A DNA stretch of 64,000 nucleotides from Coriobacteriia bacterium (lineage in GTDB: Bacteria; Actinomycetota; Coriobacteriia; Anaerosomatales; JAJZPX01), in assembly GCA_036504755.1 (NCBI GenBank), contig DASXUP010000013.1, positions 8,976-72,975 on the forward strand, in the 5' to 3' direction. Both the position numbers and the translations under genes were made by a program. Below the pieces are notes generated by a model that did not search any database, was not told where the DNA came from, and worked only from the letters and a program-made list of their open reading frames with translations. Positions 10,281 to 56,975 of the stretch are shown here, one piece after another. Every line of letters starts with the position of its first letter. Position 1 is the first letter of the stretch.

Positions 10281-10946
10281 TTACAGGTCGACGCCGAAGC
10301 AGCGGCGCAGCTCGCGCTCCTCGCCCACCTCGGACAGGATCAGGACCTCGTCTCCCACGCCGAGCACCTGGTCCGGATGCGGCACCACGATCTCGCCTTT
10401 GGAGACGATCGCCATGATGTGCGTCTTGCTCGGCATGTGCAGGTCGCCGAGGCGCTTCCCGACAGCCTGTGCATCGGCCGACAGCTTGATGTCGTCGATC
10501 ACCATGTTCTCGGTGGACAGCCCCATGAGCGTTATCACGTCGCCGAGGCTGACCTCTTTCTCGATGAGGTTGTAGATGACCGAGGCGGTCGAGACGCCGA
10601 CGTCCACGCCCCAGGCCTTCGTGAACATCCACTCGTTCTTCGGGTGGTTCGTGCGCGCGAACACCTTGGGCACGCGGTGCGTACGCTTCGACAGGAACGA
10701 CACCACGAGGTTGTCCTCGTCGTCGCCCGTCAGCGCCGCGACCAGGTCTACCTCGGCGGCCCCGGCCTTGTCGAGCACGGCGGGCTCGCATCCGTCACCC
10801 TGGATGATGTCCAGGTGCGGGAGGCGCTGCCTGACGAACTCGACGCGCTCCGGGCGGATCTCCACGATCTTGACCTGGTGCTTCTGCTGAAGCTTCTCCG
10901 CCAGGTAGAGGCCGGCCTTGCCGGCGCCGACGATAAGCACGTTCAT
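10281..10946 (-). CDS. TrkA/RCK-family protein (TrkA-N + TrkA-C), cassette 1, second RCK gene
   Basis: MNVLIVGAGKAGLYLA Rossmann motif, TGDDEDNLVV, and a C-terminal RCK_C-like segment (ADAQAVGKRLGDLHMPSKTHIMAIVSKGEIVVPHPDQVLGVGDEVLIL). The AGGTGG ribosome-binding site overlaps the previous stop codon. Confidence 0.9.
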   Translation of the reverse strand: MNVLIVGAGKAGLYLAEKLQQKHQVKIVEIRPERVEFVRQRLPHLDIIQGDGCEPAVLDKAGAAEVDLVAALTGDDEDNLVVSFLSKRTHRVPKVFARTNHPKNEWMFTKAWGVDVGVSTASVIYNLIEKEVSLGDVITLMGLSTENMVIDDIKLSADAQAVGKRLGDLHMPSKTHIMAIVSKGEIVVPHPDQVLGVGDEVLILSEVGEERELRRCFGVDL

Positions 10947-10956
10947 CGCGGGCCAC

Positions 10957-11628
10957 CTACTCCTTCAGCCCGAGCAGCCGCTCGAGCTTCTCGGTGCTCT
11001 CGTTCAGCACGTTGAGGAACAGCACGTCGTCCTTCTGGAACGTCACCCCGGACGCGGGGAGCATCGCCTCGCCCTCGCGGACGATCGACGCGACCCGGAT
11101 CTCACCCGGGACGTCGAGATCGAGCACGGATCGTCCTTCGAGCCCGGCCGGCAGCTGGACCTCGTACATCTTCACCTCGCCGTTCCCGAACTGGTAGTCG
11201 CTGTGCATGTCGGGGTGCGTGATGAGGTCGAGCAGCCGCGCGCTCGTCCAGGTGACCGACGCGATGGTCGATATGCCGAGGCCGCGGTATATCTCGGCGC
11301 GCCGCGGGTCGTAGATGCGCGCGATGACGCGGGGGACGCGGTAGTACTCCTTGGCGTTGCGCGCCGCGACGATGTTGCTGTTGTCGCCCGAGGTGACCGC
11401 GGCGAAGCAGTCCGCGTCGCGCACGCCCGCCGCCTCCATGACCTCGCGGTCGAACACTTGCCCGACGAACTTCCCGCCGAGGATGCCGTCACCTTCGTCC
11501 TCGTCGAACGCGTGCGGATCCTGGTCGATCACGGACACGGAGTGCCCCTCGTACTCGAGCATGTGCGCGAGGATGCGACCCACACGCCCGTACCCTCCGA
11601 TCAGGACGTGCATATGATGCATCGCCAT
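10957..11628 (-). CDS. TrkA/RCK-family protein (CeoB-like, TrkA-N + TrkA-C), cassette 1, first RCK gene
   Basis: HVLIGGYGRVGRILA, AVTSGDNSNIVAAR, ARIYDPRRAEIYRGLGI, and RCK_C-like LEGRSVLDLDVPGEIRVASIVREGEAMLPASGVTFQKDDVLFL. It starts 7 nt after the ATPase stop. Confidence 0.9.
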   Translation of the reverse strand: MAMHHMHVLIGGYGRVGRILAHMLEYEGHSVSVIDQDPHAFDEDEGDGILGGKFVGQVFDREVMEAAGVRDADCFAAVTSGDNSNIVAARNAKEYYRVPRVIARIYDPRRAEIYRGLGISTIASVTWTSARLLDLITHPDMHSDYQFGNGEVKMYEVQLPAGLEGRSVLDLDVPGEIRVASIVREGEAMLPASGVTFQKDDVLFLNVLNESTEKLERLLGLKE

Positions 11629-11635
11629 CGCCGGG

Positions 11636-14494
11636 TCACCCCACCTTCACGGTCGAAACGCTCGTCGTCCTTCGCAGTACGAACTTGCGGATCTCGTCGG
11701 CTATCAGCAGCAGCGGCCAGAACGCCGCCAGCACGAGCCACTCGTTGAGCGTGAGCGGCGCGGTGCTGAAGATCCGCTGCAGGGCCGGGATGTACATCAG
11801 CGCCGCGACGCCCAGGATCTCGCCCGCGATACCCCACAGTCGAAGCTTATTCGAAAAGAAGCCGACCTTGAGGATAGACTGCCGATGCGTCCGCATGGCG
11901 AACCCGTTCCCGACCTGTGCCATGACGATACCCGTCAAGGTCATGGTGGTGGCGGCGGCGTAGACGCCGGTGGCCCCGATGGCGCCGCCGGGCATGTTCC
12001 CGAAGTGCGCCATCGCGCTCCACTGCCCGAAGTGCCAGCCCGCTTCCATGTAGCGGTGGAAGAACCCGTACAGCCCGACCGCCGCCGCCATAGGGCCGAG
12101 GAACACATACGCCTTCAGGAGCATGCCGGTCGTGAGGATCGGCTCCTTCGGGCTCTTCGGCGGCCGCGCCATGACGCCCGGCTCGGGCTGCTCGAGGCCT
12201 AGGGCGAGGGCGGGGACCTGGTCGGTGAGCAGGTCGATGGTCAGGATCTGGAGCAGCGTGAGCGGCAGCGGGATCCGGAGGAACACCAGCGCCAGGAACG
12301 GGAACATCTCGGCCACGTTGGAGGTCTGGAAGTACGTCAGGAAGCGGCGGATGTTGTCGAAGATCGCCCGGCCCTCCTCGACCGCGTGGACGATCGAGGC
12401 GAAGTTGTCGTCCGTGAGGATCATGTCGGCCGCCTCGCGCGCGACGTCCGTGCCGGCCTTGCCCATCGCGATGCCGATGTCGGCGGCCTTCAGCGCCGGG
12501 GCGTCGTTCACGCCGTCGCCCGTCATCGCGACGACCTCGCCCATCGACTGGAGCTTCTGGGCGATGCGCATCTTGTGCTCCGGTATGACGCGCGCGAACA
12601 CGACCTCGCCCCTGAGCGCCTCCTCGAGATCCCCATCGTCTATCGTATCGAGGTCCTTGCCGGTGATGATGCGCGCGAGCGGGTGGGTGATGATCCCGAT
12701 CTTGCGCGCGATCGCCTCGGCCGTGAGCCCGTAGTCGCCCGTGATCATCACAACGTGGATGCCGGCAAGATGGCACTCCTCGACCGCCGCGGCCACTTCC
12801 GGCCGAGGCGGGTCCTGCATCGCTTCGAGGCCGAGCAGCGTGAGCTTCTGCTCCATCGCCGACATGTCCGCCGGGTCGTCCGTGGCGGCTACCTCGCGGG
12901 TGCAGACGGCGATGACGCGCAGCGCTTCGCGGGCGAGGCGGTCGTTGGCCGCGAGTGCGTCCTCGCGGTCCCGGTCGGTTATCGGGCGGACGCCCTCGGC
13001 CGTGCGGACGTGCGTGCACAGCTCGATCGTCTCCTTCGGCGCCCCCTTGGTGTACGCGCGAAGGCCGCTGCCCGTGTCGCACACGATCGTCATACGCTTG
13101 CGCGCGGAGTCGAAGGGGTGCTCGTAGCGCCGCTCGCAGCGCTGGTGCAGATCCTCGACGTCGAAGCCGCCCTTCGCGGCCGCGACCAGCATGGCGGCCT
13201 CGGTCGGGTCGCCGACGATCCCCCAGCGGTCCGAGTCGCCCTCCGGCGGCTTCATCCGGGAGTTGTTGCACAGCGCGCCGCCTATGAGGCACTCGTCCAG
13301 CAGCTCCCGGGCATCGCCCGTGACGGCCGCCCCGTCCGCTTCGAACGCGCCGTCGGGCGCGTAGCCGACGCCGCTGACCTCGACACGCAGCCCGGGCAGC
13401 CATACCTCGCGCACCGTCATCTGGTTCGCGGTCAGTGTCCCGGTCTTGTCCGTGCAGATGTACGTGGTGGAGCCGAGCGTCTCCACGCTCGACAGCTTCT
13501 TCACCAGAACGTGCCGCTTCGCCATCCGTTGGGCGGCCACCGACAGCGCCATGGTAAGAGTGGGGAGCAGGCCCTCGGGGACGTTGGCGACGATGATGCC
13601 GATCGCGAACACGACCGCTTCCAGAAGGCTCATGCCGACGAAGACGCGCCCGATCACGCCGAAGAACACGCCCAGCACGATGGCGATGAGCGAGATGATG
13701 CGAGAGAGGCGCGCCACGTTCTTCTGCAGCGGCGACAGGCGCTCGGCGACGCTCTGGGTGAGCCCGGCGATCTTGCCGAACTCCGTCTTCATGCCGGTGG
13801 CGTACACCACGCCCCGGCCGGCCCCCAGCACCGCGGTGCTGCCCATGAACACGAAGCTCTCGACGTCGGTGATCGACGGCGCCGTGCCGCACAAGCTGTC
13901 CGCCCGGCGCACCACCGGGTCGACCTCGCCTGTGAGTGCTGAGTTGTCGACACGCAGGTCCGCCGAGTAGACGAGCCGCGCGTCGGCGGGGACGAGGTCG
14001 CCCTCCTCGAGGTAGATGACGTCGCCTGGCACGAGGTAGCGCGCCTCGATGTCCTGCACCTGGCCGTCGCGCACCACTCTAGCCATCGGCGGCAGGAGGT
14101 TGCGCAGCGCCTCGATCGCCTTCTCGGCGCGGTACTCCTGCACGAACGCGAAGACGGCGTTGATGAGGATGACGATGATGATCGCCACGCCGAGGGCGGC
14201 CTGGTCCGAGAAGAACGCCAGCACCGTGGCCGCCCACAGCAGCAGCGCGAACGTGTTGACGAGGTGCGCGCCGAAGCGCTTCCACATCGGCACCGGCTTC
14301 TTCGCCGAAAGCACGTTCTCGCCGAACAGCGCGGCTCGCGCTGCGGCCTCCTCGGCCGTCAGGCCCTTCCTGGAGGTGTACAGCACGCCGTAGACGTCTT
14401 CGGCGGGTACGCCGCACAGGTCGAGCGGCTCGAAGTGCAGCAGTCCTTCGCGCTCGATCGCGGGATCCGTTGCCGGCATCATAGGGCGGGCCAC
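11636..14494 (-). CDS. P2-type cation-transporting ATPase (Na,K/H,K-ATPase-alpha-like ion-site residues), cassette 1
   Basis: LTGEVDP (TGE), ICTDKTGTLT, TKGAPKE, MQDPPRPEV, VMITGDYG and VAMTGDGVNDAPALK. TM4 IVANVPEGLLPT, TM5 FQTSNVAEM, TM6 LTIDLLTDQVPALALG. The start is GTG 14494 or ATG 14482/14479. Confidence 0.95.
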   Translation of the reverse strand: MARPMMPATDPAIEREGLLHFEPLDLCGVPAEDVYGVLYTSRKGLTAEEAAARAALFGENVLSAKKPVPMWKRFGAHLVNTFALLLWAATVLAFFSDQAALGVAIIIVILINAVFAFVQEYRAEKAIEALRNLLPPMARVVRDGQVQDIEARYLVPGDVIYLEEGDLVPADARLVYSADLRVDNSALTGEVDPVVRRADSLCGTAPSITDVESFVFMGSTAVLGAGRGVVYATGMKTEFGKIAGLTQSVAERLSPLQKNVARLSRIISLIAIVLGVFFGVIGRVFVGMSLLEAVVFAIGIIVANVPEGLLPTLTMALSVAAQRMAKRHVLVKKLSSVETLGSTTYICTDKTGTLTANQMTVREVWLPGLRVEVSGVGYAPDGAFEADGAAVTGDARELLDECLIGGALCNNSRMKPPEGDSDRWGIVGDPTEAAMLVAAAKGGFDVEDLHQRCERRYEHPFDSARKRMTIVCDTGSGLRAYTKGAPKETIELCTHVRTAEGVRPITDRDREDALAANDRLAREALRVIAVCTREVAATDDPADMSAMEQKLTLLGLEAMQDPPRPEVAAAVEECHLAGIHVVMITGDYGLTAEAIARKIGIITHPLARIITGKDLDTIDDGDLEEALRGEVVFARVIPEHKMRIAQKLQSMGEVVAMTGDGVNDAPALKAADIGIAMGKAGTDVAREAADMILTDDNFASIVHAVEEGRAIFDNIRRFLTYFQTSNVAEMFPFLALVFLRIPLPLTLLQILTIDLLTDQVPALALGLEQPEPGVMARPPKSPKEPILTTGMLLKAYVFLGPMAAAVGLYGFFHRYMEAGWHFGQWSAMAHFGNMPGGAIGATGVYAAATTMTLTGIVMAQVGNGFAMRTHRQSILKVGFFSNKLRLWGIAGEILGVAALMYIPALQRIFSTAPLTLNEWLVLAAFWPLLLIADEIRKFVLRRTTSVSTVKVG

Positions 14495-14689
14495 CCGATG
14501 ACGCCGGTGGACCGCCGCCCGAGCGAGTGGGTCTCCATGCTCATCTTCGCCGACGACACCGGCGCCTCCAGTCGTAACGCCGCCGAGGCGGCCTCAAGGC
14601 ACGACAGCGGGAAGTATGCCCCTTGAGGTGTTGGAAGCGCGTGAAGAGGCGGTCGCCGGTCGTGAAGAATCCGTTAAGAACCCGGATCT

Positions 14690-15484
14690 CTACCAAAGGC
14701 GGTAGTAGCCGCCGCGCTCGCTCACCTGCGCCGGGTATCGGAAGAGCGCGCCGAGCCGTTCGGCGGTGAGCGCCCGGGACTTCGGCAAGTCGGCGAAGAT
14801 CCTGCCCTCGGCAAGCATCACCACGCGCTCGATCTCCGGGATGATGTCGGCGATGTCGTGCGTCACGAGCACGATCCCCGTCCCCGCTCGCGCCAGGTCG
14901 CGCAGCAGTTCCCGCAGGTCGAAGCGGCCGCGGGGATCCAGCCCGTCGAACGGCTCGTCCAGGATCAGCGTCTCCGGCCGGTGGGCGAGCGCGCGCGCGA
15001 TGAGTGCCCGCCGGGCCTGCCCCGTCGACAAGGTGTCCACCCGCCGTTCCGCCAGCCCCGAGATGCCGAGGAAGCTGAGCACGTCGAGCGTGCGCTCGCC
15101 CATCTCGGCGGTCACGCGCTGGTGCGGGTACGTCCCGATCGAGCCGAAGAAGCCGCCGAGCACGAGCTGCCGCACCGTGACCGGACGGGCGCAGGCGGCT
15201 GCGAGCGCATCGGACACGACGCCGAGGTGGCGCCGTACCTCGAACAGGTCCCAGCGCTCCTGCCCCAGCACGCGCACGCTGCCCACGCCGTCCGAGCGGA
15301 TGCGCGCGTCGCCGGCTATCGTCCGGACGAGCGTCGACTTCCCCGAGCCGTTCGGTCCGATGATGGCGACGTGCTCGCCACGCTCGAACGCCAGCGTGAC
15401 GCGGTCGAGCACGACGTTGGCGCCGAGCACGACCGAGGCGTCGCGGAACTCGACGAGTTGGCGGTCGCCGGCTGAAGACGTCAC
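14690..15484 (-). CDS. Orphan ABC-type ATPase (ModF/YlmA-like nucleotide-binding domain, no permease nearby)
   Basis: GTG 15484 overlaps the TGA of the upstream TrkA-N gene (GTGA). Walker A GPNGSGKST, signature LSTGQARR, Walker B LILDEP, H-loop VTHD. It is the C-terminal 264 codons of track ORF 14690..15793. Confidence 0.8.
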   Translation of the reverse strand: MTSSAGDRQLVEFRDASVVLGANVVLDRVTLAFERGEHVAIIGPNGSGKSTLVRTIAGDARIRSDGVGSVRVLGQERWDLFEVRRHLGVVSDALAAACARPVTVRQLVLGGFFGSIGTYPHQRVTAEMGERTLDVLSFLGISGLAERRVDTLSTGQARRALIARALAHRPETLILDEPFDGLDPRGRFDLRELLRDLARAGTGIVLVTHDIADIIPEIERVVMLAEGRIFADLPKSRALTAERLGALFRYPAQVSERGGYYRLW

Positions 15485-15897
15485 TGCTTCGTGACGACGT
15501 GCTTCTCTAGAAGGTTCGCGATCATGGACGTGTTCGACACGGGTATGTCCACGCCGAACTCGTCGGTGAACAGCCACTCGTTCTTCGGGTTGTTTATGCG
15601 CGCGATGGTGAGCGGCACCTTGTACTCGTACTTCCCGAGCAGGCACACCACGAGGTTGTCTTCGTCGTCGCCGGTGGCCGCGACGATCGCGTCCGCCTTC
15701 GTGACGTTCGCGTCCTCCAGGATGTACGGCTCGTCGCCGTCGCCGCAGATCAGCCGCACGTTGTCCTGGAGCTCGCCTTCCAGACGCGTGCACTGCTCCG
15801 GCCTGAACTCCACCAGCGTGACCTCGTGACCGGCCTCTCCGAGCATCTGAGCGAGGAACGAACCGACCTTGCCCCCGCCGACTATGACTACGACCAT
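15481..15897 (-). CDS. TrkA-N-only RCK protein (138 aa, no RCK_C domain), cassette 2, second RCK gene
   Basis: MVVVIVGGGKVGSFLA, TGDDEDNLVV and ARINNPKNEWLF. It is clearly paralogous to the N-terminal half of 10281..10946 but ends after about 138 aa. The TAGGAGG ribosome-binding site overlaps the previous stop. Confidence 0.85.
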   Translation of the reverse strand: MVVVIVGGGKVGSFLAQMLGEAGHEVTLVEFRPEQCTRLEGELQDNVRLICGDGDEPYILEDANVTKADAIVAATGDDEDNLVVCLLGKYEYKVPLTIARINNPKNEWLFTDEFGVDIPVSNTSMIANLLEKHVVTKQ

Positions 15898-15908
15898 CTC
15901 TTCGCCTC

Positions 15909-16556
15909 CTACAGGCCGATCATGCGCTTGAACTTCGGCATAGCGGTGGTGAGGACGGCGAGCTCCAGCACGTCTCCCTCGCGGAAGGTCGCGCCGGTCG
16001 CCGGGATGAACGACTGTCCCGCCCTGATGATGGCCACCACGAGCACCTCGTTCGGCATCGAGATGTCTTCGACGCGCCTGCCGATGAGCTGCTGCGTCAC
16101 GGACAGCTTCACCAGCTGCACCTCGCCGTCACCGAGGGTGGTGTCTCGCACGAGCGCCTGGTGCATGACGATCGACATGATCTCGTTCACGGCCCACGAG
16201 ACCGACGAGATCGTCGGGATGCCGAGGCGCCGGTAGATGTCGGCGCGGCGGGGGTCGAAGATGCGTGCGACCACCTTGGGGATGCGGTAGATGTCCCGCG
16301 CGATCGTGGAGGAGACGACGTTGCTGTTGTCGCCGCTGGTGACCGCGACGAACGCGTCGGCCATGTCCGCCCCGGCCTTCGTCAGAACGTCCCGGTCGAA
16401 GACGAGACCCTTGACCGTGATCCCCTTGAACGCCTTCCCGAGCCGCTTGAACGCCGCGGGGTCCTTGTCGATGACCGCGACGTCATGCCCCTCGGCCGAG
16501 AACTTGGTCGCGAGCAGGGCGCCTACACGACCGCATCCCGCGATTATGACCTTCAC
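15909..16556 (-). CDS. TrkA/RCK-family protein (CeoB-like), cassette 2, first RCK gene
   Basis: GTG start with a GAGGGAGG ribosome-binding site that overlaps the ATPase stop. KVIIAGCGRVGALLA, AVTSGDNSNVV, ARIFDPRRADIYRRLGI, and RCK_C-like LIGRRVEDISMPNEVLVVAIIRAGQSFIPATGATFREGDVLEL. Confidence 0.9.
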   Translation of the reverse strand: MKVIIAGCGRVGALLATKFSAEGHDVAVIDKDPAAFKRLGKAFKGITVKGLVFDRDVLTKAGADMADAFVAVTSGDNSNVVSSTIARDIYRIPKVVARIFDPRRADIYRRLGIPTISSVSWAVNEIMSIVMHQALVRDTTLGDGEVQLVKLSVTQQLIGRRVEDISMPNEVLVVAIIRAGQSFIPATGATFREGDVLELAVLTTAMPKFKRMIGL

Positions 16557-16567
16557 TTTCGCCTCCC

Positions 16568-19441
16568 TCAGCTCGCCGCCGCGACATCGTCGTCGTCGGT
16601 CTTGTCCTCATGGTAGACTTCCCCACCCTCGGCCGTATCCGCCACCAACGGGTGACGGCGCCGGTAGAAGAACTTGCGGATCTCGTCGGCGACCAGGAGC
16701 GTGGGTATGAGCGCGACGAGCACGACCCAGTCGACGGGTTGCAGCGGACCGTGCTCGAAGATGCGCTGGAACGGCTGCGCGTAGATCAGGATGTTGATCG
16801 CGACGAGCTCGATCAGGATGCCCCAGATCAGGAATCGGTTGCTGAAGAAGCCGACCTTGAAGATCGACTCGCGGTTCGTCCGCTGCGCGAAGCCGTTGCC
16901 GATCTGGGTCGTGACGACCGCGGCGTGCGTCATCGTCGTCGCTTTGGCATACAGCAGCGCTCCCGCGGTCCCGGCACCCATCGCCACCATGCCGGCCACG
17001 CCCATCGAGGGACGCCAGCCGTGGGACCAGTACATCCAGTAGAAAGCGACCATCGCTGCCGCGGCTTGGATCGGGCCGAGGAACAGGAACACGCGCCAGA
17101 GTACCGACCAGTTCAGCAGGTTTTCCGATCGCGACCGCGGCGGCCGCCGCATGATGCCGGGCTCGGGCGCTTCGGTGCCGAGGGCGAGTGCCGGGATCAT
17201 GTCCGTGCCGAGGTCGATGGCGAGGATCTGCATGACCGTGAGCGGGAGTGGTATGCGGAACATGACGAACAGCAGGAACGGCACGAGCTCGGGCACGTTG
17301 CTGGTGAAGATGTAGGTGACGAACCGGCGGATGTTGTCGTAGACCGCGCGACCCTCTTCGATCGCGTTGACGATGCTCGCGAAGTTGTCGTCCGTGAGGA
17401 TCATGTCGGCCGCTTCCTTGGCGACGTCCGTGCCCGCGATCCCCATCGCGACACCGATGTCGGCTACCTTCAGCGCCGGCGCGTCGTTCACGCCGTCGCC
17501 GGTCATGGCTACGATGTGCCCCATGTCCTTCAGCGCCTGCGCGATCTGCATCTTGTGCTCGGGCGCCACGCGCGCGAACAGCACGTCGTCCTTCGCGAGG
17601 TGCTCCTCGAGGTCCTGCTGGGTCATCCGGTTGAGTTCGGCGCCCGTCACGATCGTCGCGCTGCTTCCGCGGACGATCCCGATCCGGCGCGCGATCGATT
17701 CCGCCGTCAGGCCGTAGTCGCCGGTGATCATGATGATCTTGATGCCGGCCGTCCGGCACTCCTCGACGGCCGTCGCCACCTCGTCGCGCGGCGGGTCCTG
17801 CATCGCCATCAAGCCGACGAACACGAGATCGCGCTCGGTCGCATCGGGCGAGTAGTCGCTCTCGTGCTCCGGGATCTCGCGATACGCCATCGCGAGCACT
17901 CGCAGGCCGTTGCGCGCGAACTCGTCGTTCTGCCCGACGATCGTCTCGCGGTCCTCGGCCGTCATGTCGCGCGAGCCGTCCACCGTCGCGATCCGCGTCG
18001 ACAGGTCGAGGACCTCCTTCGGAGCGCCCTTCACGTAGCCGATGCGGCCGAACTTGTGCAGGTGGATCGTCGTCATGCGCTTGCGCACGGAGTCGAACGG
18101 CAGCTCGAATATCCGCCGGTAGGCCTTGATCTCCTTCGGGTAGTCGAAGCCGGCCTTCTCCGCGGCCACGAGTAGCGCGGCCTCCGTCGGATCGCCGAGG
18201 ATCGTCCAGGTGTCCTTCTCGGCCGAGGGCGGGATCAGCCGGGCGTTGTTGGCGAGGGCTGCCGCGCGCACGAGTATCCGGAGCGCCTGCTGCTGGTGCT
18301 CGTTCAGACTCTTGCCGTCGTGGACGAACTCGCCGTTGGGCTCGTAGCCGCTGCCGAGGACCTGGATGTGCTCGCCGTTCACGAAGATGTCCCGGACCGT
18401 CATCTCGTTCTTCGTGAGCGTCCCGGTCTTGTCCGTGCAGATCACGGTCGTGGAGCCCAGCGTCTCCACCGAGGACAGCTTCTTGATGAGCGCGTGCCTC
18501 CCCGCCATCCGCTGCACGCCCATCGCGAGTGCCAGGCTGACGGTGGGCAAGAGGCCCTCCGGCACGAGCGCGACGATTATGCCGACGGCGAAGACGAAGC
18601 CCTCGATGAGCGTCAGCCCGGCGACGAAGTAGCCGAGCACGAAGAACAGAACGCCGAGTCCGGTCGCGAGGATCGCGACGATCTGGACGACCTTCTCCAT
18701 CTGCTTCTGCAACGGCGAGAGTTCCTGCTTCACGCTCTGCGTCAGCTGCGCGATCTTGCCGAACTGCGTGTGCATCCCGGTCGCGTAGACGGCCGCCTTG
18801 CCGCCGCCGTACGCGACCGACGTGCCGGCGAAGACGAGGTTCGGCATCTCGACGACGGTGAGTCGTTCGTCCTTGTGAGGTGACGCCGTCTTGCGGACGG
18901 GCTCGGACTCGCCCGTCAAGGTGGCGTTGTTCGTGCGGAGCTCGAACTCCTCGATCAGCCGCGCGTCGGCCGAGATGTTGTCGCCCTCCTCGAGCACCAA
19001 TATGTCGCCCGGCACGATCTCGCCCGCCAGGATCTCCTTCACCTCGCCGTCCCGGATGACCTTGGCACGAGCGGGGATCATCGCCTTGAGCGCCTCGGTC
19101 GCCTTCTCGGCCTTGAACTCCTGCCAGAACGAGAAGATGGCGTTGATGAAGATCACGGCGAAGATGGCGTAGCCGAGCTGGGGCATACCCCCGACGAAGG
19201 ACAGGACGCCGCCGACCCAGAGCATGATCGCGAACAGGTGGTAGAAGTTCTCGAGGAACTTCAGCCACAGCGGCCGCCCGCGGACTTCCTTGATCTCGTT
19301 CCGGCCGTACGTCTCGAGACGCTCGAGCGCATCGGACTCGGAGAGGCCGTCCTCGCCGGAGTGGAGCGTCTCGAGCACCGAGGTCCGCGTCATCTCGTGG
19401 CAGGAGACCTCGGGGTCGCACACAAGAGGTTCGGTCGGCAT
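16568..19441 (-). CDS. P2-type cation-transporting ATPase (Na,K/H,K-ATPase-alpha-like ion-site residues), cassette 2
   Basis: LTGESEP, ICTDKTGTLT, VKGAPKE, MQDPPRDEV, IMITGDYG and VAMTGDGVNDAPALKVADIGVAMGIAGTDVAKEAADMILTDDNFASIV. TM4 IVALVPEGLLPT, TM5 IFTSNVPEL, TM6 LAIDLGTDMIPALALG. Confidence 0.95.
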   Translation of the reverse strand: MPTEPLVCDPEVSCHEMTRTSVLETLHSGEDGLSESDALERLETYGRNEIKEVRGRPLWLKFLENFYHLFAIMLWVGGVLSFVGGMPQLGYAIFAVIFINAIFSFWQEFKAEKATEALKAMIPARAKVIRDGEVKEILAGEIVPGDILVLEEGDNISADARLIEEFELRTNNATLTGESEPVRKTASPHKDERLTVVEMPNLVFAGTSVAYGGGKAAVYATGMHTQFGKIAQLTQSVKQELSPLQKQMEKVVQIVAILATGLGVLFFVLGYFVAGLTLIEGFVFAVGIIVALVPEGLLPTVSLALAMGVQRMAGRHALIKKLSSVETLGSTTVICTDKTGTLTKNEMTVRDIFVNGEHIQVLGSGYEPNGEFVHDGKSLNEHQQQALRILVRAAALANNARLIPPSAEKDTWTILGDPTEAALLVAAEKAGFDYPKEIKAYRRIFELPFDSVRKRMTTIHLHKFGRIGYVKGAPKEVLDLSTRIATVDGSRDMTAEDRETIVGQNDEFARNGLRVLAMAYREIPEHESDYSPDATERDLVFVGLMAMQDPPRDEVATAVEECRTAGIKIIMITGDYGLTAESIARRIGIVRGSSATIVTGAELNRMTQQDLEEHLAKDDVLFARVAPEHKMQIAQALKDMGHIVAMTGDGVNDAPALKVADIGVAMGIAGTDVAKEAADMILTDDNFASIVNAIEEGRAVYDNIRRFVTYIFTSNVPELVPFLLFVMFRIPLPLTVMQILAIDLGTDMIPALALGTEAPEPGIMRRPPRSRSENLLNWSVLWRVFLFLGPIQAAAAMVAFYWMYWSHGWRPSMGVAGMVAMGAGTAGALLYAKATTMTHAAVVTTQIGNGFAQRTNRESIFKVGFFSNRFLIWGILIELVAINILIYAQPFQRIFEHGPLQPVDWVVLVALIPTLLVADEIRKFFYRRRHPLVADTAEGGEVYHEDKTDDDDVAAAS

Positions 19442-19559: not shown

Positions 19560-20804
19560 TCATCGCGCCAGCGCGAGCATCTCCCGTGTCCGCTTCGCGG
19601 CGAGGCGCAATCCGCCGACTTGCAGCCAGTACTTCACGTAGGTGATGCGCTTCATGGTTATCGCCGGGATCCCCGTCAGCGGGACGCCGTACATCCAGCC
19701 TACGCCCCAGCGCGGCCCGATGCTCACGAACTCCCCGCGCATGTGCGGCGTGAACGGCCGCGGCCCCTCGCCACGCGCCTCGCGCAGTATGTTGTCGGCT
19801 GTCGCGGGACCCTCTTGGATCGCCATCTGAGCGAGCATCATCAGCGGCTGACCCGTGTCGGGGTCGCGAGCCTCCGCCACGTCACCGATCGAGTAGACGT
19901 CGGGGTACCGCGGCGTGCGGAGCGCGGGGTCGACGACCACACGCCCGCCCGCCGAGGTCTCCAGCCCCCATCGGGCCGCGTGCGGGTCCGCCTTCGCGCC
20001 GCCCGCCCAAACGAGGATCGTGCTGTCGACCCGGCGTCCGTCGGAAAGGGCGATCATGTTGCCCTCGACGCGGTCGACGAAGGCGCCCGTGATCACTTCG
20101 ACACCCATCCGGCCCAGACGACGCTCCGCCTTGCCGCGCTCGCGCTCGGGGAGGTCGAAGAGGATCTCGTCGCGGCCCTCGACGAGGTGGATGCTCAGGT
20201 CGGCCGGATCGAGGCCCGCGTCGATGACGCGCCTCGGGAGCATCTGCGCCAGGGTCCCGACGATCTCCACCCCCGTGGCGCCGCCGCCGACCACGGTGTA
20301 GCTCATCGTGCGCCGGCGCTCGTCCCGGTCCGCCACCCGCGCGGCCGCCTTCAGCATCTCCTGCCCGCGGCGCTGCAGCAGGCGCGCATCCTCCACCGAC
20401 CACATGGTGACGGCATGCTCGTCCAGCCCAGGGATCGGCGGCACTGCGGCGACGGCCCCGGTGGCCACGACGAGCCGCCAGTAGTCGACACGCTCGCCCC
20501 CCTCGACCACGATCGCGTGCTCGTCGGGAAGCACCTCGGCCACACGGTTGTAGCAGGCGGTGACGGGAAGGCCGCGGTATATGGTGGGATGCCACAGCTC
20601 GCAGAACTCCGGCCGGTTCGGGCCGACCGCCACCAGGTCGAGCTCGGAGAGCGCCTGCTGGCACGGGTTGGGCTCGACGAGAAGGATGTCGACGTCGTCC
20701 TCCGGCCGCATCCGCCTCGCGAGCCTGACGGCGCACGACGTGCCGGCGTATCCTGCGCCCGCTATCACGACGCGCCTCTTCGTTGTCTCGGGTGCGCAGG
20801 CCAC
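19560..20804 (-). CDS. Type II NADH dehydrogenase-like FAD/NAD(P)-dependent oxidoreductase (NDH-2 family)
   Basis: GTG 20804 has GGAGGG 6 nt upstream and is in frame with track ORF 19560..21164. Two dinucleotide motifs, VVIAGAGYAG and TVVGGGATGVE, plus IGDVA. An alternative ATG start lies at 20870. Confidence 0.8.
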   Translation of the reverse strand: MACAPETTKRRVVIAGAGYAGTSCAVRLARRMRPEDDVDILLVEPNPCQQALSELDLVAVGPNRPEFCELWHPTIYRGLPVTACYNRVAEVLPDEHAIVVEGGERVDYWRLVVATGAVAAVPPIPGLDEHAVTMWSVEDARLLQRRGQEMLKAAARVADRDERRRTMSYTVVGGGATGVEIVGTLAQMLPRRVIDAGLDPADLSIHLVEGRDEILFDLPERERGKAERRLGRMGVEVITGAFVDRVEGNMIALSDGRRVDSTILVWAGGAKADPHAARWGLETSAGGRVVVDPALRTPRYPDVYSIGDVAEARDPDTGQPLMMLAQMAIQEGPATADNILREARGEGPRPFTPHMRGEFVSIGPRWGVGWMYGVPLTGIPAITMKRITYVKYWLQVGGLRLAAKRTREMLALAR

Positions 20805-20927: not shown

Positions 20928-21170
20928 ATGGTGAAGGTCTACGCCCTGTCGACGTGCCCGTACTGCAAGATGACGAAGCAGTACCTCTCCGAGAACGGCG
21001 TGGCATTCGAGCACACCGACGTGGACATGCTGGACGGTGAAGAGCGCCAAAAGGCGATCGACACGGTGAAGCGACTCTCGGGCGGGACGTCGTTCCCCGT
21101 GGTGGACGTCGACGGCGAGGTCGTCGTCGGCTTCGACAAGGCGAAGCTGAAGGAGCTGCTGCACCTGTGA
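20928..21170 (+). CDS. Glutaredoxin-like protein, YruB/NrdH type (CPYC active site)
   Basis: ATG 20928 follows GGAGGAG. MVKVYALSTCPYCKMTKQYLSENGVAFEHTDVD...SFPVVDVDGEVVVGFDKAKLKELL. It is the C-terminal 80 codons of track ORF 19542..21170. Confidence 0.85.
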   Translation: MVKVYALSTCPYCKMTKQYLSENGVAFEHTDVDMLDGEERQKAIDTVKRLSGGTSFPVVDVDGEVVVGFDKAKLKELLHL

Positions 21171-21829
21171 GCGATCCCGGCGGATACGCCCTTCGGCCGA
21201 GGTTCGAGCCGGGCACCACAGTCGACGACCTCGAGGCGTACATGGCGCCCTTCGTCGCCACCCTCGGCTACAAGTTCAACACGGACTCGGAGTTCGTCGG
21301 TGCCGTCATGCGGTCCGAGATCGAGATCCTCGGCCGAGACGGCGACGTCTTCTGCCCTTGAAGGATCCGCACCGGCGTGTACGCCGAGGACGTCAAGATC
21401 GTCTGCCCGTGCATCCCGTTCTACCTCGGCGAGTTCTCCGCGATGCGCAAGTGCTGGTGCGGGCTGTTCATCCGCACGGACGTCGAGGACGGGGCCGAGC
21501 TGCACGGCGTGAGCGAACCTCCGACCGGCCCTGTCGAGGTGCGCGTGGCGGCCGAGGACGACTTGCGCGAGGGGGAGGGGAAGGCCGTCACGATAGGGAA
21601 GCGCAAGGTCGCGCTCTTCCGCACCACGTCGGGCTGGCATGCCCTCTCCAACGTGTGCCGCCATTGGGGCGGGCCGCTGGCCGAGGGCCCGGTGGAAGGC
21701 GAGTTCGTGATGTGTCCCTGGCACGGGTGGAGGTACGACGTGCGCACGGGAACGACCGATCACCCGGACGCCGACGTCAAGGTCTACCCCATCACCGTGC
21801 GAGACGGCGAGATCTTCGTCACGGTCTAG
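21167..21829 (+). CDS. Ferredoxin:thioredoxin-reductase catalytic-subunit-like domain fused to a Rieske [2Fe-2S] domain. It is interrupted by an in-frame TGA (21359..21361) inside the CPC motif. It is either a candidate selenoprotein or a split/pseudogene.
   Basis: Track ORFs 21167..21361 and 21377..21829 share one frame. The joined translation is ...GYKFNTDSEFVGAVMRSEIEILGRDGDVFCP[TGA]RIRTGVYAEDVKIVCPCIPFYLGEFSAMRKCWCGLF.... The Rieske motif is CRHWGGPL-x-CPWHGW (C-x-H-x16-C-x2-H). The GTG start overlaps the glutaredoxin stop (GTGA). Confidence 0.55.
21373..21386 (+). promoter_or_regulatory. SECIS-like hairpin candidate downstream of the in-frame UGA
   Basis: CGGCG-UGUA-CGCCG is a perfect 5-bp GC stem starting 11 nt after the UGA, with G as the second loop base. 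A flanking GAUC (21364..21367) / GAUC (21397..21400) pair could extend the structure. This is geometry only. No covariation was tested. Confidence 0.35.
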
Positions 21830-34437: not shown

Positions 34438-35538
34438 CTAGAACCGCGCGACCTCGCGATAAAAGGTGTCGCGCTGCACGGGCGTGAAGCCGGCGTCGCG
34501 GGCGAGGCGGACGAGCTCGTCGCGCGCGAGCATGTAGCGCGTGCCCGCCGCGGCGACGACGTTCTCCTCGATCATCGTCGAGCCGAGGTCGTTCGCTCCG
34601 AAGGCGAGCGCGACCTGGCCGATCTTGCCGCCCTGAGTCACCCAGCTCGCCTGGATGTTCGGTACGTTGTCGAGGTACAGCCGCGACACGGCGAGCGTCC
34701 GCAGGTACTGCCACCCGCTCGCGGCCGCGGGCTGCTCGGTCTCGAGCTCGGTGTTCCCGGGCTGGAAGCTCCACGGGATGAACGCGCGGAAGCCGACGTG
34801 CCCCCCGGCGACCGCCTCGTCCTGCACCTCGCGTACGCGGCGCATGTGCTCGACGCGCTCTTGAAGCGTCTCGACGCCCCCGAACATCATCGTGGCGGTG
34901 GTCGACATGTCGAGCTTGTGCGCCTCGCGCATCACGTCGAGCCACTGCTCGCTGGACGCCTTGTGCGGCGACACGTAGCTGCGCACGCGGTCCACGAGGA
35001 TCTCCGCGCCGCCGCCGGGCAGCGAGTCGAGGCCGGCGTCGCGCAGGCGCCGGAGGACCTCGCGCGTGGAGATGTTGGAGACGCGGGCGATGTGCACGAT
35101 CTCGGGCGGGCCGAAGCCGTGGACGTGGATGGGGAAGCGCGCCTTCAGCTCGCGCAGCATCCCCTCGTACCACTCGATGCCGAGGTCCGGATGCAGCCCG
35201 CCCTGCAGCAGGATCGCCGTCCCGCCCAGCTCGAGCGTCTCGGCCACCTTCGCGTACAGCTCGTCGGGCGGGAGCACGTAGGCGTCCGGGTCCTCGGCCG
35301 AGCGGTAGAAGGCACAGAAGCGGCAGCCGGAGACGCACACGTTCGTGTAGTTCACGTTGCGGTCGACGATGAAGGTGACCTCGCTCTCCGGATGCATCCG
35401 GTCCCGCGTCGCGCCCGCGGCCGCGGCGAGGTCGAGCATCTCGGCGGACTCCAGCAGCGAGAGGGCTTCGGCTTCCGTCAGCCGATGCTCGCCGCTGGCC
35501 GCCGCGAAGGCGAGGCCTGCGAGGCCGGGCGCGCTCAC
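34438..35538 (-). CDS. mqnC: Cyclic dehypoxanthinyl futalosine synthase (radical SAM), MqnC
   Basis: GTG 35538 overlaps the mqnA TGA. NYTNVCVSGCRFCAFY (CxxxCxxC), LLQGGLHPD, FIPWSFQPGNT, QASWVTQG and GANDLGSTMIEENVVAAAG. It is the C-terminal 366 codons of track ORF 34438..35862. Confidence 0.85.
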   Translation of the reverse strand: MSAPGLAGLAFAAASGEHRLTEAEALSLLESAEMLDLAAAAGATRDRMHPESEVTFIVDRNVNYTNVCVSGCRFCAFYRSAEDPDAYVLPPDELYAKVAETLELGGTAILLQGGLHPDLGIEWYEGMLRELKARFPIHVHGFGPPEIVHIARVSNISTREVLRRLRDAGLDSLPGGGAEILVDRVRSYVSPHKASSEQWLDVMREAHKLDMSTTATMMFGGVETLQERVEHMRRVREVQDEAVAGGHVGFRAFIPWSFQPGNTELETEQPAAASGWQYLRTLAVSRLYLDNVPNIQASWVTQGGKIGQVALAFGANDLGSTMIEENVVAAAGTRYMLARDELVRLARDAGFTPVQRDTFYREVARF

Positions 35539-36362
35539 ACGCGCTCCAGGACCCGCAGCTCCGGCACGCGCTCCAACTCGCCGATGTCGTGCGCCTCGGC
35601 GAAGTATCGCATCATCCCCTCGCGGAAGCGCTCGCCGAAACTGAAGCGCAGCGTGTCGTAGTAGCTGGCGAAGAAGTTGACCGGCATCGGCTCCCACCGG
35701 GCCGCGTACTCGGCGACAGCCTCGGCGTGCTCGGCGGAGTAGCGCATCGACTCGTTGAGCGCCCAGTCCAGGCGCTGTACCTCCGCCGGGTTGGCCTCGG
35801 CGTACTCCCGGCGCACCGCCCACACGGCGTACACCATCGGCAGCCCCGTGTGCTCCTTCCACACACTGCCGAGGTCGAACTTCAGCTCCGCCATCGGCTG
35901 GTGGTACGCCCGCAGCGCGTCGTCGCCGATGAGCAGCGCCGCGTCGGCCTCGCGCATCATGCTCGCGAGGTCGCTCGGCATCTCGGCGTAGCGGGGCACG
36001 ACTCCCCAGTGCTTCGCGAGCAGGATCTTAGCGAGCACCTGCGAGGTGCGCGAGCTGTCGGTGAGCGCCACCGTCTTCCCGCCGAGGTCCTCGGCCGGCA
36101 CCTTCGACACCAGCAGGATCGACTGGACCTCGCCGTCGGAGCTGATCGAGATGTCCGGGAGGAGCACGAGGTCGTCGGCGTGGCGCGCGTACTCGATCGC
36201 CGGGATGGGCGCGGCGTCGAGCTCGCCGGCGACGAGCATCTCGGCGAGCCGCCTGGGCGGCGCTTTCAGCAGCTCGACGTCCAGCAGCGCGTCCGACTTC
36301 ACCAGCCCGTAGTAGAGCGGCAGGCAGTTCAGGAACTGGATGTGGCCGAGGCGTGGACGCAT
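35535..36362 (-). CDS. mqnA: Chorismate dehydratase (futalosine pathway), MqnA
   Basis: RLGHIQFLNCLPLYYGL, LDAAPIPAIEY, ALLIGDDAL and PMVYAVWAVRREY. Confidence 0.9.
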   Translation of the reverse strand: MRPRLGHIQFLNCLPLYYGLVKSDALLDVELLKAPPRRLAEMLVAGELDAAPIPAIEYARHADDLVLLPDISISSDGEVQSILLVSKVPAEDLGGKTVALTDSSRTSQVLAKILLAKHWGVVPRYAEMPSDLASMMREADAALLIGDDALRAYHQPMAELKFDLGSVWKEHTGLPMVYAVWAVRREYAEANPAEVQRLDWALNESMRYSAEHAEAVAEYAARWEPMPVNFFASYYDTLRFSFGERFREGMMRYFAEAHDIGELERVPELRVLERV

Positions 36363-38179: not shown

Positions 38180-38322
38180 TGTCTCGCCCCTTCTCGTCCG
38201 GGGCGCCGCCGCCCCCGCCGGGAATGATATACCTTCGAGCGGACATGGCCGGCTGGAATACGTTGCCATGGCCTCGGTTATATACCTTCGTGATCGCCCG
38301 AACAGAATCCGGGAGGGACAAG

Positions 38323-50142: not shown

Positions 50143-50147
50143 GACGG

Positions 50148-51749: not shown

Positions 51750-51785
51750 AAGCTCGAAACGGCACACGGCGATAGGAGAACAACG

Positions 51786-52553: not shown

Positions 52554-52564
52554 AGGGGGAGACG

Positions 52565-55052: not shown

Positions 55053-55057
55053 CGGTG

Positions 55058-56974: not shown

Positions 56975-56975
56975 G

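Follow-up and report, generated by a model that had tools for sequence, protein, structure and literature searches.

The window, by which we mean the whole 64-kb stretch of DNA that was analysed, contains a small locus of redox genes (Table 1). At its centre are two open reading frames, 21167..21361 (64 codons and a TGA) and 21377..21829, which lie in the same frame. Between the two coding stretches there are only the TGA and five sense codons (AGG ATC CGC ACC GGC). When the reading frame was recomputed, these coordinates, the shared frame and the five-codon gap all agreed with a preceding reading made from the sequence alone (hereafter the sequence-only reading), as did the joined translation (...GDVFCP*RIRTGVYAEDVKIVCPCIPFYLGEFSAMRKCWCGLF...), which is a product of 220 residues. 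About 650 homologues are known at this full length (about 220 aa). GenBank divides the stretch in two, annotating a "hypothetical protein" (HEY3317853.1) and a "Rieske 2Fe-2S domain-containing protein" (HEY3317854.1), and split annotations of this type recur in at least four related lineages. The genetic code is not reassigned, because TGA is the ordinary stop codon of 19 of the 45 predicted ORFs of the window, the upstream glutaredoxin gene among them. The TGA between the two frames is the sole in-frame TGA in the 64 kb to lie on a gene-bearing strand and have a strong coding signal on both sides. Two further matches of the in-frame-TGA scan lie opposite annotated genes and were judged to be antisense shadows.

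Table 1. Features of the locus, in positions of the window
Feature	Position	Strand	Basis or remark
FAD/NAD(P)H oxidoreductase (Pyr_redox_2), divergently transcribed	19560..20711	-	Pfam PF07992; gene calls on identical JGI contig
Glutaredoxin-like protein, 80 aa, CPYC, YruB/NrdH-like	20928..21170	+	Pfam PF00462, TIGR02196
Proposed single recoded gene, 220 codons and TAG	21167..21829	+	FTR/FDR-like [4Fe-4S] domain fused to Rieske [2Fe-2S] domain
FTR-catalytic-subunit-like domain, residues 23-110	21233..21496	+	Pfam FeThRed_B PF02943, 59.8 bits (cut-off 22)
Outer stem, 5' strand, GACGUCUUC	21344..21352	+	9 bp, encloses the UGA; RNAalifold consensus of TGA lineages
Predicted cluster ligand C63	21353..21355	+	Alignment to FTR chains
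In-frame TGA, codon 65, proposed selenocysteine	21359..21361	+	Second Cys of first CPC motif, equivalent to Cys57 of Synechocystis FTR
Five linker codons, R-I-R-T-G	21362..21376	+	Precede the first possible start codon after the TGA; translated with the rest of the protein
Candidate SECIS apical hairpin, CGGCG-UGUA-CGCCG	21373..21386	+	11 nt after the UGA
Outer stem, 3' strand, GAGGACGUC	21386..21394	+	G21386 common to outer stem and inner hairpin
Predicted cluster ligand C80	21404..21406	+	Alignment to FTR chains
Predicted cluster ligand C82	21410..21412	+	Alignment to FTR chains
Predicted cluster ligand C96	21452..21454	+	Alignment to FTR chains
Predicted redox partner of residue 65, C98	21458..21460	+	CWC motif; alignment to FTR chains
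Rieske [2Fe-2S] ferredoxin-like domain, residues 125-207	21539..21787	+	Pfam PF00355, 67.1 bits

The joined product has two domains. The N-terminal one scores above the Pfam gathering cut-off for FeThRed_B and carries the CPC/CPC/CxC signature, here C63-P-U65, C80-P-C82 and C96-W-C98 (U being the proposed selenocysteine), which places it in the FTR superfamily. The sequence-only reading had already assigned the protein to the FTR type, and the profile match bears it out. All five of C63, C80, C82, C96 and C98 are invariant in the family. From the alignment to FTR chains and established structural work, the first four would be the ligands of the cluster and C98 the redox partner of residue 65. 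The C-terminal domain has the CxH...CxxH motif that defines Rieske proteins, with invariant ligands C164, H166, C183 and H186, and in the PDB it matches Rieske ferredoxins from oxygenase systems best.

The genes around the reductase suggest a functional context. Its GTG start shares the letters GTGA with the stop of the upstream glutaredoxin gene, and the two genes are translationally coupled. A glutaredoxin gene lies immediately upstream in 88 of 90 loci, with the CPYC motif in 84, and the operon of glutaredoxin and FTR-Rieske genes is found in at least 577 GTDB species genomes; a literature search gave no characterisation of this operon. The glutaredoxin-like protein is likely to be the substrate of the reductase. 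The Pyr_redox_2 gene adjoins the reductase locus in 32 of 90 loci, and its product could possibly donate electrons to the Rieske domain.

Codon 65 among the relatives

The TGA falls on the second cysteine of the first CPC motif, as proposed from the sequence alone and now borne out by alignment to the PDB chains of FTR and FDR. In the other loci taken from GTDB species genomes, codon 65 is TGC (60) or TGT (20) and thus encodes cysteine in 80/80, and outside the TGA forms the family shows no variation in the CPC motif. The TGA itself is present in four species-level lineages and a strain variant, in more than 10 independent assemblies that come from different samples and assemblers. The orthologue comparison suggested by the sequence-only reading therefore returned both forms, a cysteine codon in most loci and TGA in four lineages. 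Its recurrence at one codon in diverged lineages makes the TGA more than a chance event. An in-frame UGA opposite a conserved cysteine, i.e., a Cys/Sec pair, is a standard mark of selenoproteins.

The sequence of the window is the same as that of JGI Ga0376481_000013 and Logan SRR11794808, including the TGA. Other TGA forms are L096 (GCA_040961035.1), at 96% nucleotide identity; the L004 type, represented by 7 contigs from ENA, NCBI and Logan samples; L094 and L095; and L100, from JGI 3300042876. The four TGA lineages differ from each other at about 17-20% of nucleotides, and dS between the three that were tested is 0.36-0.76. None of the lineages has additional stops or frameshifts, and all keep TGC at position 98, with a single TGA per gene. 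In the three tested lineages dN/dS is 0.19-0.29 N-terminal of the TGA and 0.10-0.20 C-terminal of it, which is on par with intact Cys homologues. Hence, a further standard mark of selenoproteins, TGA orthologues elsewhere together with conservation downstream of the codon, is also found here. These lineages may share ancestry and would then not be fully independent. In the tree, the monophyly of the TGA forms has a bootstrap of only 75/300, and we therefore make no claim on the number of switches between Cys and Sec.

Pattern scans of metagenome_contigs gave zero matches, which is no measure of rarity, the collection being without these samples. The JGI contig L093 fits one of the scan patterns, yet it was absent from the scan output.

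A candidate SECIS element

The candidate hairpin is made of the arms CGGCG (21373..21377) and CGCCG (21382..21386) around the loop TGTA. Its sequence, its 11-nt offset, a distance of about 16 nt between UGA and loop and a G in the loop were all described in the sequence-only reading and are confirmed; the distance is 16 nt and the G is the second base of the loop. Published criteria for bacterial SECIS elements (bSECIS) consist of a small apical loop with G then U, a stem of at least 4 bp, the spacing and an MFE of at most -7.5 kcal/mol (PMC13188914). The hairpin has a 4-nt loop with G2 followed by U, a 5-bp stem, a spacing of 16 nt and -8.5 kcal/mol in context. It thus agrees with all four, as expected from the geometry noted earlier, and provides the bSECIS that is the third standard mark of a selenoprotein; the hairpin is small and its spacing is at the lower end of the bSECIS range.

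How much weight can such a hairpin bear? Alone, it is weak evidence. When we counted Watson-Crick stems with 5 bp or more and a G in the loop, 16-37 nt downstream, 23% of the 9,803 codon positions in genes of the window had one, so a lone hairpin of this kind is not unusual. The MFE z-scores of the hairpin region (-0.5 to -0.95) are not significant and the Cys forms fold as stably as the TGA forms, in other shapes, which led us to drop stability as an argument in favour of conservation and association. A search of the window against Rfam gave no match to a SECIS family; we know of no general bacterial SECIS model in Rfam.

The weight comes from the comparison of TGA and Cys forms. The hairpin has 5/5 bp in 5/5 TGA sequences. 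Of about 86 Cys-form sequences (82 loci and the 4 sister sequences of the per-sequence table), 0 have the complete stem. The residues G-V-Y-A are likewise encoded in the four TGC relatives that stand closest, yet each of these has a mismatch in the hairpin. Within the hairpin, 0 nucleotides vary among the TGA forms and 5 among the sister TGC forms, for an equal overall divergence. Since the hairpin is invariant in the TGA group, it shows no compensatory base changes. The expectation that it would be conserved among TGA-containing homologues is therefore borne out. The proposal that it is the signal for selenocysteine is strengthened by the retention of the hairpin in TGA forms only; taken alone, such hairpins are common (the 23% above).

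The TGA lineages also share an outer stem around the UGA. All 9 of its 9 pairs are present in every TGA sequence, and in 1 of 82 Cys-form loci. Its 3' strand has two one-sided changes in other lineages (GAA, GAU), both of which keep the pairing. This stem has a putative function.

Decoding of the UGA and a possible mechanism

We consider it probable, with good confidence, that 21167..21829 is one gene in which codon 65, a UGA, is decoded as selenocysteine. The TGA lies on the catalytic cysteine and is conserved with the hairpin in four related species; hence selenocysteine is the most likely reading. A nucleophilic redox cysteine is also the classic place for this residue. The sequence-only reading had proposed that selenocysteine replaces the exposed redox cysteine of an FTR-type CPC motif followed by a SECIS-like hairpin, and the Cys/Sec pairing, the recurrence of the TGA, the selection on both sides of it and the fit to bSECIS all support this proposal. 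From these data we infer selenocysteine as the inserted residue, the binding of SelB by the candidate hairpin and the electron path described below.

The five codons that follow the TGA are informative when considering whether the gene could be split. In such a case, translation would stop at the TGA to give a 64-aa peptide, a separate 150-aa Rieske fragment would be produced, and the pieces may assemble around the cluster. Gene callers and GenBank do annotate two ORFs. The restart could use GTG 21377 or, in one lineage, an ATG at codon 67. AGGA is found 5-11 nt before GTG 21377 in 2 of 4 lineages, and AGG accounts for only 6.7% of Arg codons here. However, L094 and L100 lack the AGGA, and we rejected it as a conserved Shine-Dalgarno for an internal restart, as it is present in two lineages and not in the two others. 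The GTG itself is the codon of Val71, which is present in intact TGC relatives too. In the TGA lineages, codon 66 reads AGG or CGG and codon 67 ATC, CTC, ATG or ATA (encoding I, L or M, as in the family); codon 68, whose Arg is invariant in the family, reads CGC, CGT, AGG or CGG. Both Arg66, which precedes every possible restart codon, and Arg68 are thus preserved through synonymous changes, and the linker is therefore translated. Two separate polypeptides among the orthologues, which the sequence-only reading had named as an outcome that would count against it, are not what these conserved linker residues suggest. Furthermore, disulfide reduction would be lost in a split gene, because neither fragment would carry the catalytic residue, yet all the remaining catalytic and ligand residues are still conserved. 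We therefore regard a split gene as very unlikely.

The conservation of the two halves and of the linker shows that the UGA is read through; it does not show which residue is inserted. A near-cognate or suppressor tRNA could insert Cys, Trp, Arg or Gly without selenium, stimulated by the RNA structure, and such a structure does enclose the UGA. No selA, selB, selD or tRNA-Sec turned up in the 64-kb window, in its flanks (about 16 kb) or in related loci totalling 1.46 Mb, which also fits decoding without selenium; this result speaks for the stretches covered and not for the genome as a whole. The search relied on the Pfam annotation of the about 45 ORFs of the window, on scans of the 1.46 Mb of loci for motifs of SelA, SelD and SelB, on about 16 kb added to the window from the identical 726-kb JGI contig, and on ARAGORN, which detected no tRNA-Sec either in the window or in 56 loci. 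Read-through by a near-cognate tRNA usually amounts to a few percent. This would be a poor substitute for TGC, which is one mutation away, at a site where 80/80 relatives have a Cys codon and where the residue is the nucleophilic redox cysteine. Moreover, the hairpin fits the SelB-type model, and selenocysteine at the same site was already reported in FTR homologues (PMC2398784), so that read-through without selenium seems to us quite unlikely. Still less credible is a pseudogene or a sequencing or assembly error, in which the change from TGC to TGA was inactivating or miscalled. The two codons differ by one base, and MAGs or low-coverage contigs make up many of the sources, but more than 10 assemblies and four lineages share this TGA, dN/dS is 0.1-0.3 on both sides of it, and there are no additional stops or frameshifts. 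This explanation is effectively refuted.

The protein is best read as a disulfide reductase of the FTR/FDR type. If the UGA is decoded as selenocysteine, a [4Fe-4S] cluster held by C63, C80, C82 and C96 would lie next to a Sec65-Cys98 selenenylsulfide pair. The C-terminal Rieske [2Fe-2S] domain could be a built-in entry for electrons, akin to the ferredoxin of plant FTR and the fused rubredoxin of archaeal FDR. The Rieske cluster would be charged by a reductant, possibly NAD(P)H via the divergent Pyr_redox_2 flavoprotein, and would pass electrons to the [4Fe-4S] cluster and from there to the Sec65-Cys98 pair. Sec65 could then attack the disulfide in the glutaredoxin-like CPYC protein, whose gene is co-transcribed, and that protein would in turn reduce its own targets. 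The insertion of selenocysteine would depend on the 14-nt hairpin, 11 nt past the UGA, recruiting SelB with Sec-tRNA(Sec) in the manner of the minimal E. coli SECIS.

The best reading of these sequences is a new, mis-annotated subfamily of FTR-type selenoproteins, with one selenocysteine and a Rieske fusion, in Coriobacteriia. This would correct the public record, putting one gene in place of two GenBank ORFs, and, next to the few FTR-type selenoproteins listed so far, would introduce a second subfamily with a different architecture. It would also place such proteins in Actinomycetota (Coriobacteriia) and in non-marine samples. Automatic pipelines can be expected to keep missing the subfamily, because the current NCBIfam model does not recognise it. 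Close Sec and Cys orthologues, about 85% identical and with the same partner glutaredoxin, could be a natural pair in which to study the role of selenium in a redox pair beside a cluster. As a principle, selenocysteine in place of the nucleophilic cysteine of FTR-like enzymes has been on record since 2008.

A broader joint reading, which we put forward tentatively and hold to be rather unlikely as a whole, is that the GVYAED clade descends from an ancestor using selenocysteine, with a Rieske-fed, selenium-dependent thiol chain and a UGA acting as a selenium switch. If this were true, V-Y-A would have replaced the D-P-K usual in the family because the codons GGC GUG UAC GCC form the SECIS hairpin, which would thus have left a footprint in the protein sequence. 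The Cys members of the clade, with decayed hairpins of 4/5 bp, would be recent reversions from Sec to Cys. The enzyme would then be the first Fe-S disulfide reductase that depends on selenium and has a Rieske electron input of its own. Together with the glutaredoxin and the flavoprotein, it would make up a thiol-reducing chain that is self-contained and runs on NAD(P)H, not on ferredoxin. The UGA could then be a selenium-sensing switch between the full-length enzyme and truncated products.

Comparison with known systems

The sequence-only reading knew of no selenocysteine-containing enzyme of the FTR type, and in this it was mistaken. FTR homologues with a CxU motif were reported in 2008 from the GOS metagenome (Zhang and Gladyshev, PMC2398784), FTR-type selenoproteins are listed as "CxU" in PMC9312934 and PMC13188914, and NCBIfam has a model of Sec FTR homologues, NF041072, the "FtrB family double-selenoprotein." These proteins and the window protein belong to the same superfamily (COG4802 / PF02943), have selenocysteine, proposed in the case of the window protein, at the second cysteine of the first CPC (C-x-U), which is the exposed redox residue, and are both predicted from a Cys/Sec pair and a bSECIS. 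The NF041072 family differs in being stand-alone, about 121 aa long, with two selenocysteines at both redox cysteines, and in coming from marine metagenomes. The window protein would have one selenocysteine (Cys98 stays a cysteine) and a fused Rieske domain, and it comes from Coriobacteriia MAGs. It matches the NF041072 model with 24.3 bits for a cut-off of 160 and lacks the second selenocysteine, and is thus not a member of that family.

The nearest solved relatives of the N-terminal domain are structures of archaeal/bacterial ferredoxin:disulfide reductase (FDR), PDB 4TPU (E = 6e-8) and 7PWE (E = 3e-7). The former was deposited as "Rubredoxin" and is, we presume, the FTR-like enzyme of Methanosarcina acetivorans of Kumar et al. 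2015. A search for literature on PDB 4TPU and 7PWE gave nothing useful. FDR and the window protein have in common CPC...CPC...CxC, an aromatic residue in place of His in the CxC motif, and the fusion of a small metal-centre electron-transfer domain. This domain is a rubredoxin in FDR and a C-terminal Rieske [2Fe-2S] domain in the window protein, where, unlike in FDR, the nucleophile is encoded by UGA. FDR is reported to reduce atypical thioredoxin or NrdH-like partners (PMC6262447, PMC9176816), a parallel to the CPYC glutaredoxin adjacent to the reductase in the window.

The window protein shares its six-Cys signature and its fold family with plant and cyanobacterial FTR chains, at weak sequence similarity (E about 0.1-0.2). 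In the alignment, the TGA falls on the Cys of "LCPCRHY", through which these chains form the mixed disulfide with thioredoxin. The window protein has CWC where plant-type FTR has CHC, its electron donor would be the fused Rieske domain and not a free ferredoxin, and its presumed partner, unlike that of plant-type FTR, is a glutaredoxin-like protein. With its CWC motif, its weak PDB match and a fused Rieske domain as putative donor, it falls outside plant-type FTR, a ferredoxin-dependent heterodimer that includes a variable subunit.

Finally, the candidate element can be compared with the minimal SECIS of the E. coli fdhF type. Both follow the UGA and have G then U in a small apical loop, and the E. 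coli element presumably has the same spacing of 11 nt after the UGA. The hairpin in the window is shorter (5 bp and a 4-nt loop) and has no bulged U. It differs from the fdhF SECIS also in the additional 9-bp stem, in which sequence upstream of the UGA pairs with sequence downstream of the hairpin.

The interrupted reductase gene

The FTR-Rieske gene consists of two ORFs in one frame, as the sequence-only reading had noted and as the sequence, the ORF list and the translation bear out, and only a TGA and five codons (AGG ATC CGC ACC GGC) lie between them. The joined product reads ...GRDGDVFCP*RIRTGVYAEDVKIVCPCIPFYLGEFSAMRKCWCGLF... (asterisk, TGA), and its C-terminal portion bears CRHWGGP...CPWHGW. 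Pfam, run on the joined protein with Cys written at the stop, finds an FTR-like and a Rieske domain. In ferredoxin:thioredoxin reductase (FTR), the [4Fe-4S] cluster is bound by both Cys of the second CPC motif and by the leading Cys of the first CPC and of CxC. The redox-active disulfide joins the second Cys of the first CPC, which is the exposed nucleophile, to the last Cys of CxC. The proposal that the TGA stands for this second Cys of the first CPC is confirmed by alignment to solved structures: ferredoxin:disulfide reductase (FDR)-like PDB chains 4TPU and 7PWE align at E = 6e-8 and 3e-7, and the weak matches to plant and cyanobacterial FTR chains have the identical register. The cyanobacterial FTR sequence given with that proposal agrees with PDB chain 2PVD in the structure alignment. 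The Cys roles are transferred to the window's protein by alignment alone.

Features of the FTR-Rieske locus and of the rest of the window
Feature	Position	Strand	Remarks
Glutaredoxin-like and FTR-Rieske genes	20928..21829	+	Two-gene unit
FTR-Rieske gene	21167..21829	+	220 codons and TAG
FeThRed_B (PF02943)	residues 23-110		Pfam, 59.8 bits
Rieske (PF00355)	residues 125-207		Pfam, 67.1 bits
Nearly frozen segment	21323..21358	+	36 nt before the TGA
In-frame TGA	21359..21361	+	Codon 65
Candidate SECIS hairpin CGGCG/TGTA/CGCCG	21373..21386	+	11 nt past the TGA; 16 nt from TGA to loop
V-Y-A codons	21374..21385	+	
Outer stem, 9 bp, enclosing the UGA	21344..21352 with 21386..21394		Consensus fold
Cell-surface protein	1..3263	-	Cut by window end
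Transport module	10281..19441		Tandem duplication
P-type cation ATPase	11636..14494	-	
P-type cation ATPase	16568..19441	-	
Radical-SAM protein	34438..35862	-	
Radical-SAM protein	37064..38269	-	
Tad/Flp-type pilus assembly cluster	49860..57899		
Cell-surface protein	61191..64000	+	Cut by window end

Full-length FTR-Rieske fusions (about 220 aa) form about 650 clusters in the protein database, mostly from MAGs of Coriobacteriia and other Actinomycetota, and a scan of GTDB species genomes gave at least 577 relatives. When 19 of the fusions are aligned, none departs from the six FTR-type Cys or the four Rieske ligands. Gene callers split the reductase gene at the TGA in all TGA lineages, and clustering at 90% buries the TGA-form fragments in clusters represented by a full-length Cys form. 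The GenBank entry, a TPA MAG, has the gene as HEY3317853.1 (a 64-aa hypothetical protein) and HEY3317854.1 (a 150-aa Rieske protein), and the candidate gives an annotation fix for this split record.

Elsewhere in the window, each of the two ATPase genes of the transport module is followed by a TrkA-N/TrkA-C gene pair, and along a 676-nt stretch (about 12158..12823 versus 17138..17806) the two are about 76% identical in nucleotide sequence. Both large cell-surface proteins have CW_binding_2 repeats; one of them also has a subtilisin-like S8 protease domain, visible on the JGI contig, and the second has LVIVD repeats. The pilus cluster encodes TadE/G-like and RcpC/CpaB proteins, a ParA/TadZ-like ATPase, a CpaF-type T2SSE ATPase, a VWA domain fused to T2SSF and a second T2SSF protein. 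The radical-SAM pair, with CofH/MqnC C-terminal regions, would fit menaquinone synthesis by the futalosine pathway (MqnE/MqnC-like).

Conservation and read-through of the TGA

Both Cys and TGA forms occur among the orthologues: codon 65 is TGC in 60, TGT in 20 and TGA in 2 of the loci counted (80 loci kept plus those fetched earlier). The two TGA loci are the window's own copy (L001) and L004, an independent MAG with 87% amino-acid identity; the L004 type is found on seven contigs in samples from ENA, NCBI and Logan. A Logan contig and a 726-kb JGI contig are each 100% identical to the window. Further sequences are split at this point too and so share the TGA, namely L096 (GCA_040961035.1, a 96%-identical strain), L094 and L095, and a TGA form from a different JGI sample (L100) was concealed in the 90% cluster of a Cys form. 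Three TGA lineages (window, L004 and L094) were compared for divergence and selection. Their pairwise dS is 0.36-0.76, and dN/dS is 0.19-0.29 upstream of the TGA and 0.10-0.20 downstream, the same values as in intact TGC relatives. The TGA is thus real and old. A decaying pseudogene or a sequencing error is effectively excluded, given that the same TGA recurs in several lineages on independent contigs and samples and that dN/dS is low on both sides of it.

The stretch from the TGA to the next start codon bears on translation. Across the TGA lineages, Arg66 is encoded by AGG or CGG; residue 67 varies among Ile, Leu and Met (ATC, CTC, ATG, ATA), within the family's normal range; Arg68, invariant in the family alignment, is CGC, CGT, AGG or CGG; Thr69 and Gly70 are fixed. 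The five codons are conserved as protein and not as DNA. The two Arg codons have undergone at least four substitutions, every one synonymous, which by our rough estimate is an event of about 2% if the spacer is untranslated. This pattern indicates that the TGA is read through. Two separately translated products from a split gene are quite unlikely: the spacer residues are kept through the synonymous Arg changes, and no conserved internal ribosome-binding site was found, AGGA preceding the restart in two of the four TGA lineages and missing in the other two. A changed genetic code was rejected, because TGA terminates 19 of the 45 predicted ORFs, the upstream glutaredoxin gene among them. TGA is a normal stop elsewhere, and the recoding is therefore local. 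The TGA at 21359..21361 is a real, conserved recoding site. The best explanation is that it is decoded, probably, as selenocysteine (Sec), read-through of the same codon by other means being unlikely.

The candidate SECIS element and proposed Sec decoding

The hairpin has the position and spacing claimed for it from the sequence. Taken alone it is unremarkable: a comparable hairpin follows 23% of the codons in the window's genes, and folding z-scores of the region are not significant. For bacterial SECIS elements, a 2026 review gives 3-9 nt for the apical loop, with a G at its first or second position and G or U next, 4-16 bp for the upper stem, a UGA-to-loop distance of 16-37 nt and an MFE of at most -7.5 kcal/mol (PMC13188914). 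The candidate agrees on every point (loop UGUA, G then U, 5 bp, 16 nt, -8.5 kcal/mol), so the SECIS-like geometry first proposed for it holds.

The weight of the hairpin evidence rests on the comparison between TGA and Cys forms. The hairpin is fully paired in 5/5 TGA sequences, L100 included, versus none of the Cys forms, about 86 in all (82 loci and four sister sequences). The four closest TGC/TGT relatives encode G-V-Y-A or G-V-Y-S, and each is mismatched (ACG for ACC, GGG for GGC, or GTC TAC TCG). With L100 counted, overall divergence is equal in the TGA and TGC groups (203 versus 215 variable sites of 630), whereas within the 14-nt hairpin 0 sites vary among the TGA forms versus 5 among the TGC forms. 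The expected conservation among TGA homologues is thus found; being invariant, the element offers no compensatory changes. Within the clade, 4/4 TGA versus 0/4 TGC lineages have the hairpin (Fisher about 0.014, our calculation), a contrast weakened by possible shared ancestry.

The outer stem is fully paired in every TGA sequence versus 1/82 Cys loci; a ribosome positioned at the UGA would cover its 5' strand, and the small hairpin would then stand at the entrance of the channel. The segment before the TGA has 4 variable sites in TGA lineages versus 9 in TGC relatives, and the outer stem explains only its own 5' strand there. The rare Pro codon CCT (5.6% of Pro codons) directly precedes the TGA in every TGA sequence, versus CCG or CCC in TGC relatives, and a rare CGA (5.2% of Arg) in this segment is kept in three of the four TGA lineages.

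Only this clade has V-Y-A after Gly70, where other family members carry D-P-K or similar, and the V-Y-A codons are exactly the hairpin-forming sequence. The clade's Cys members (L002, L003, L091 and L092) keep these residues, with the hairpin at 3 or 4 of 5 bp. Such a pattern would agree with an ancestor that used Sec and with later reversions from Sec to Cys, after which the Cys-member hairpins look like decaying "fossil" SECIS elements. TGA monophyly has a bootstrap of 75/300 in the tree, too low to fix the order of events.

The 64-kb window has no tRNA genes and, by Pfam and motif scans, no SelA, SelB or SelD domains or sel motifs, nor were there sel genes in 16 kb of its flanks recovered from an identical JGI contig. 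Two pattern scans of metagenome contigs gave 0 matches from a collection without some JGI samples, so that zero does not mean absence; it is uninformative because the JGI metagenome scan missed contig Ga0376481_000013, a JGI sequence that matches the first pattern exactly. Actinobacteria are among the phyla with the Sec-decoding trait (PMC5322559), and Sec decoding in this lineage is therefore plausible at the level of the phylum.

A possible electron chain and the known relatives

The glutaredoxin-like (CPYC) and FTR-Rieske genes form a near-universal two-gene unit (loci L002-L100). The former lies directly upstream in 88/90 loci, and in the window it overlaps the FTR-Rieske start codon (GTGA). 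A Pyr_redox_2 gene is divergently adjacent in 32/90 loci, and about 30/90 have a cysteine synthase and an Rrf2 regulator on the downstream side. By its PDB matches, the Rieske domain is similar to soluble Rieske ferredoxins from oxygenase systems, to which flavoprotein reductases supply electrons. Atypical thioredoxin or NrdH-like proteins are reported substrates of FDRs (PMC6262447, PMC9176816). By the FTR roles, residue 65 would be a Sec paired with Cys98 in a selenenylsulfide. On the basis of the FDR partners, the linked glutaredoxin, the Rieske likeness and the adjacent Pyr_redox_2 gene, we propose that electrons could pass from a reductase through the Rieske domain and the [4Fe-4S] cluster with its Sec-Cys pair to the glutaredoxin-like protein, as substrate, and on to its targets. 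Gene linkage alone is observed; the electron path is what we infer from it.

Our literature search found no paper on the Rieske-fused FTR-like family. Sec-containing FTR-type enzymes, which the sequence-only reading took to be undescribed, were already reported in 2008: of two such homologues in GOS, one has Sec at both redox positions, and its two predicted Sec fall exactly at the two redox-active Cys (PMC2398784). They are modelled as NCBIfam NF041072, "FtrB family double-selenoprotein," and reviews of 2022 and 2026 give the Sec-FTR family as "CxU" (PMC9312934, PMC13188914). The window's protein falls outside NF041072 (24 bits versus a cut-off of 160), from which it differs by having one predicted Sec and a fused Rieske domain, and the 2026 review lists no Rieske-containing selenoprotein (PMC13188914). 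Its nearest solved relatives, the FDR-type enzymes, have a fused rubredoxin instead. It is a solid new selenoprotein candidate whose underlying principle is already known, and it is best placed in a new subfamily of a selenoprotein kind already described.
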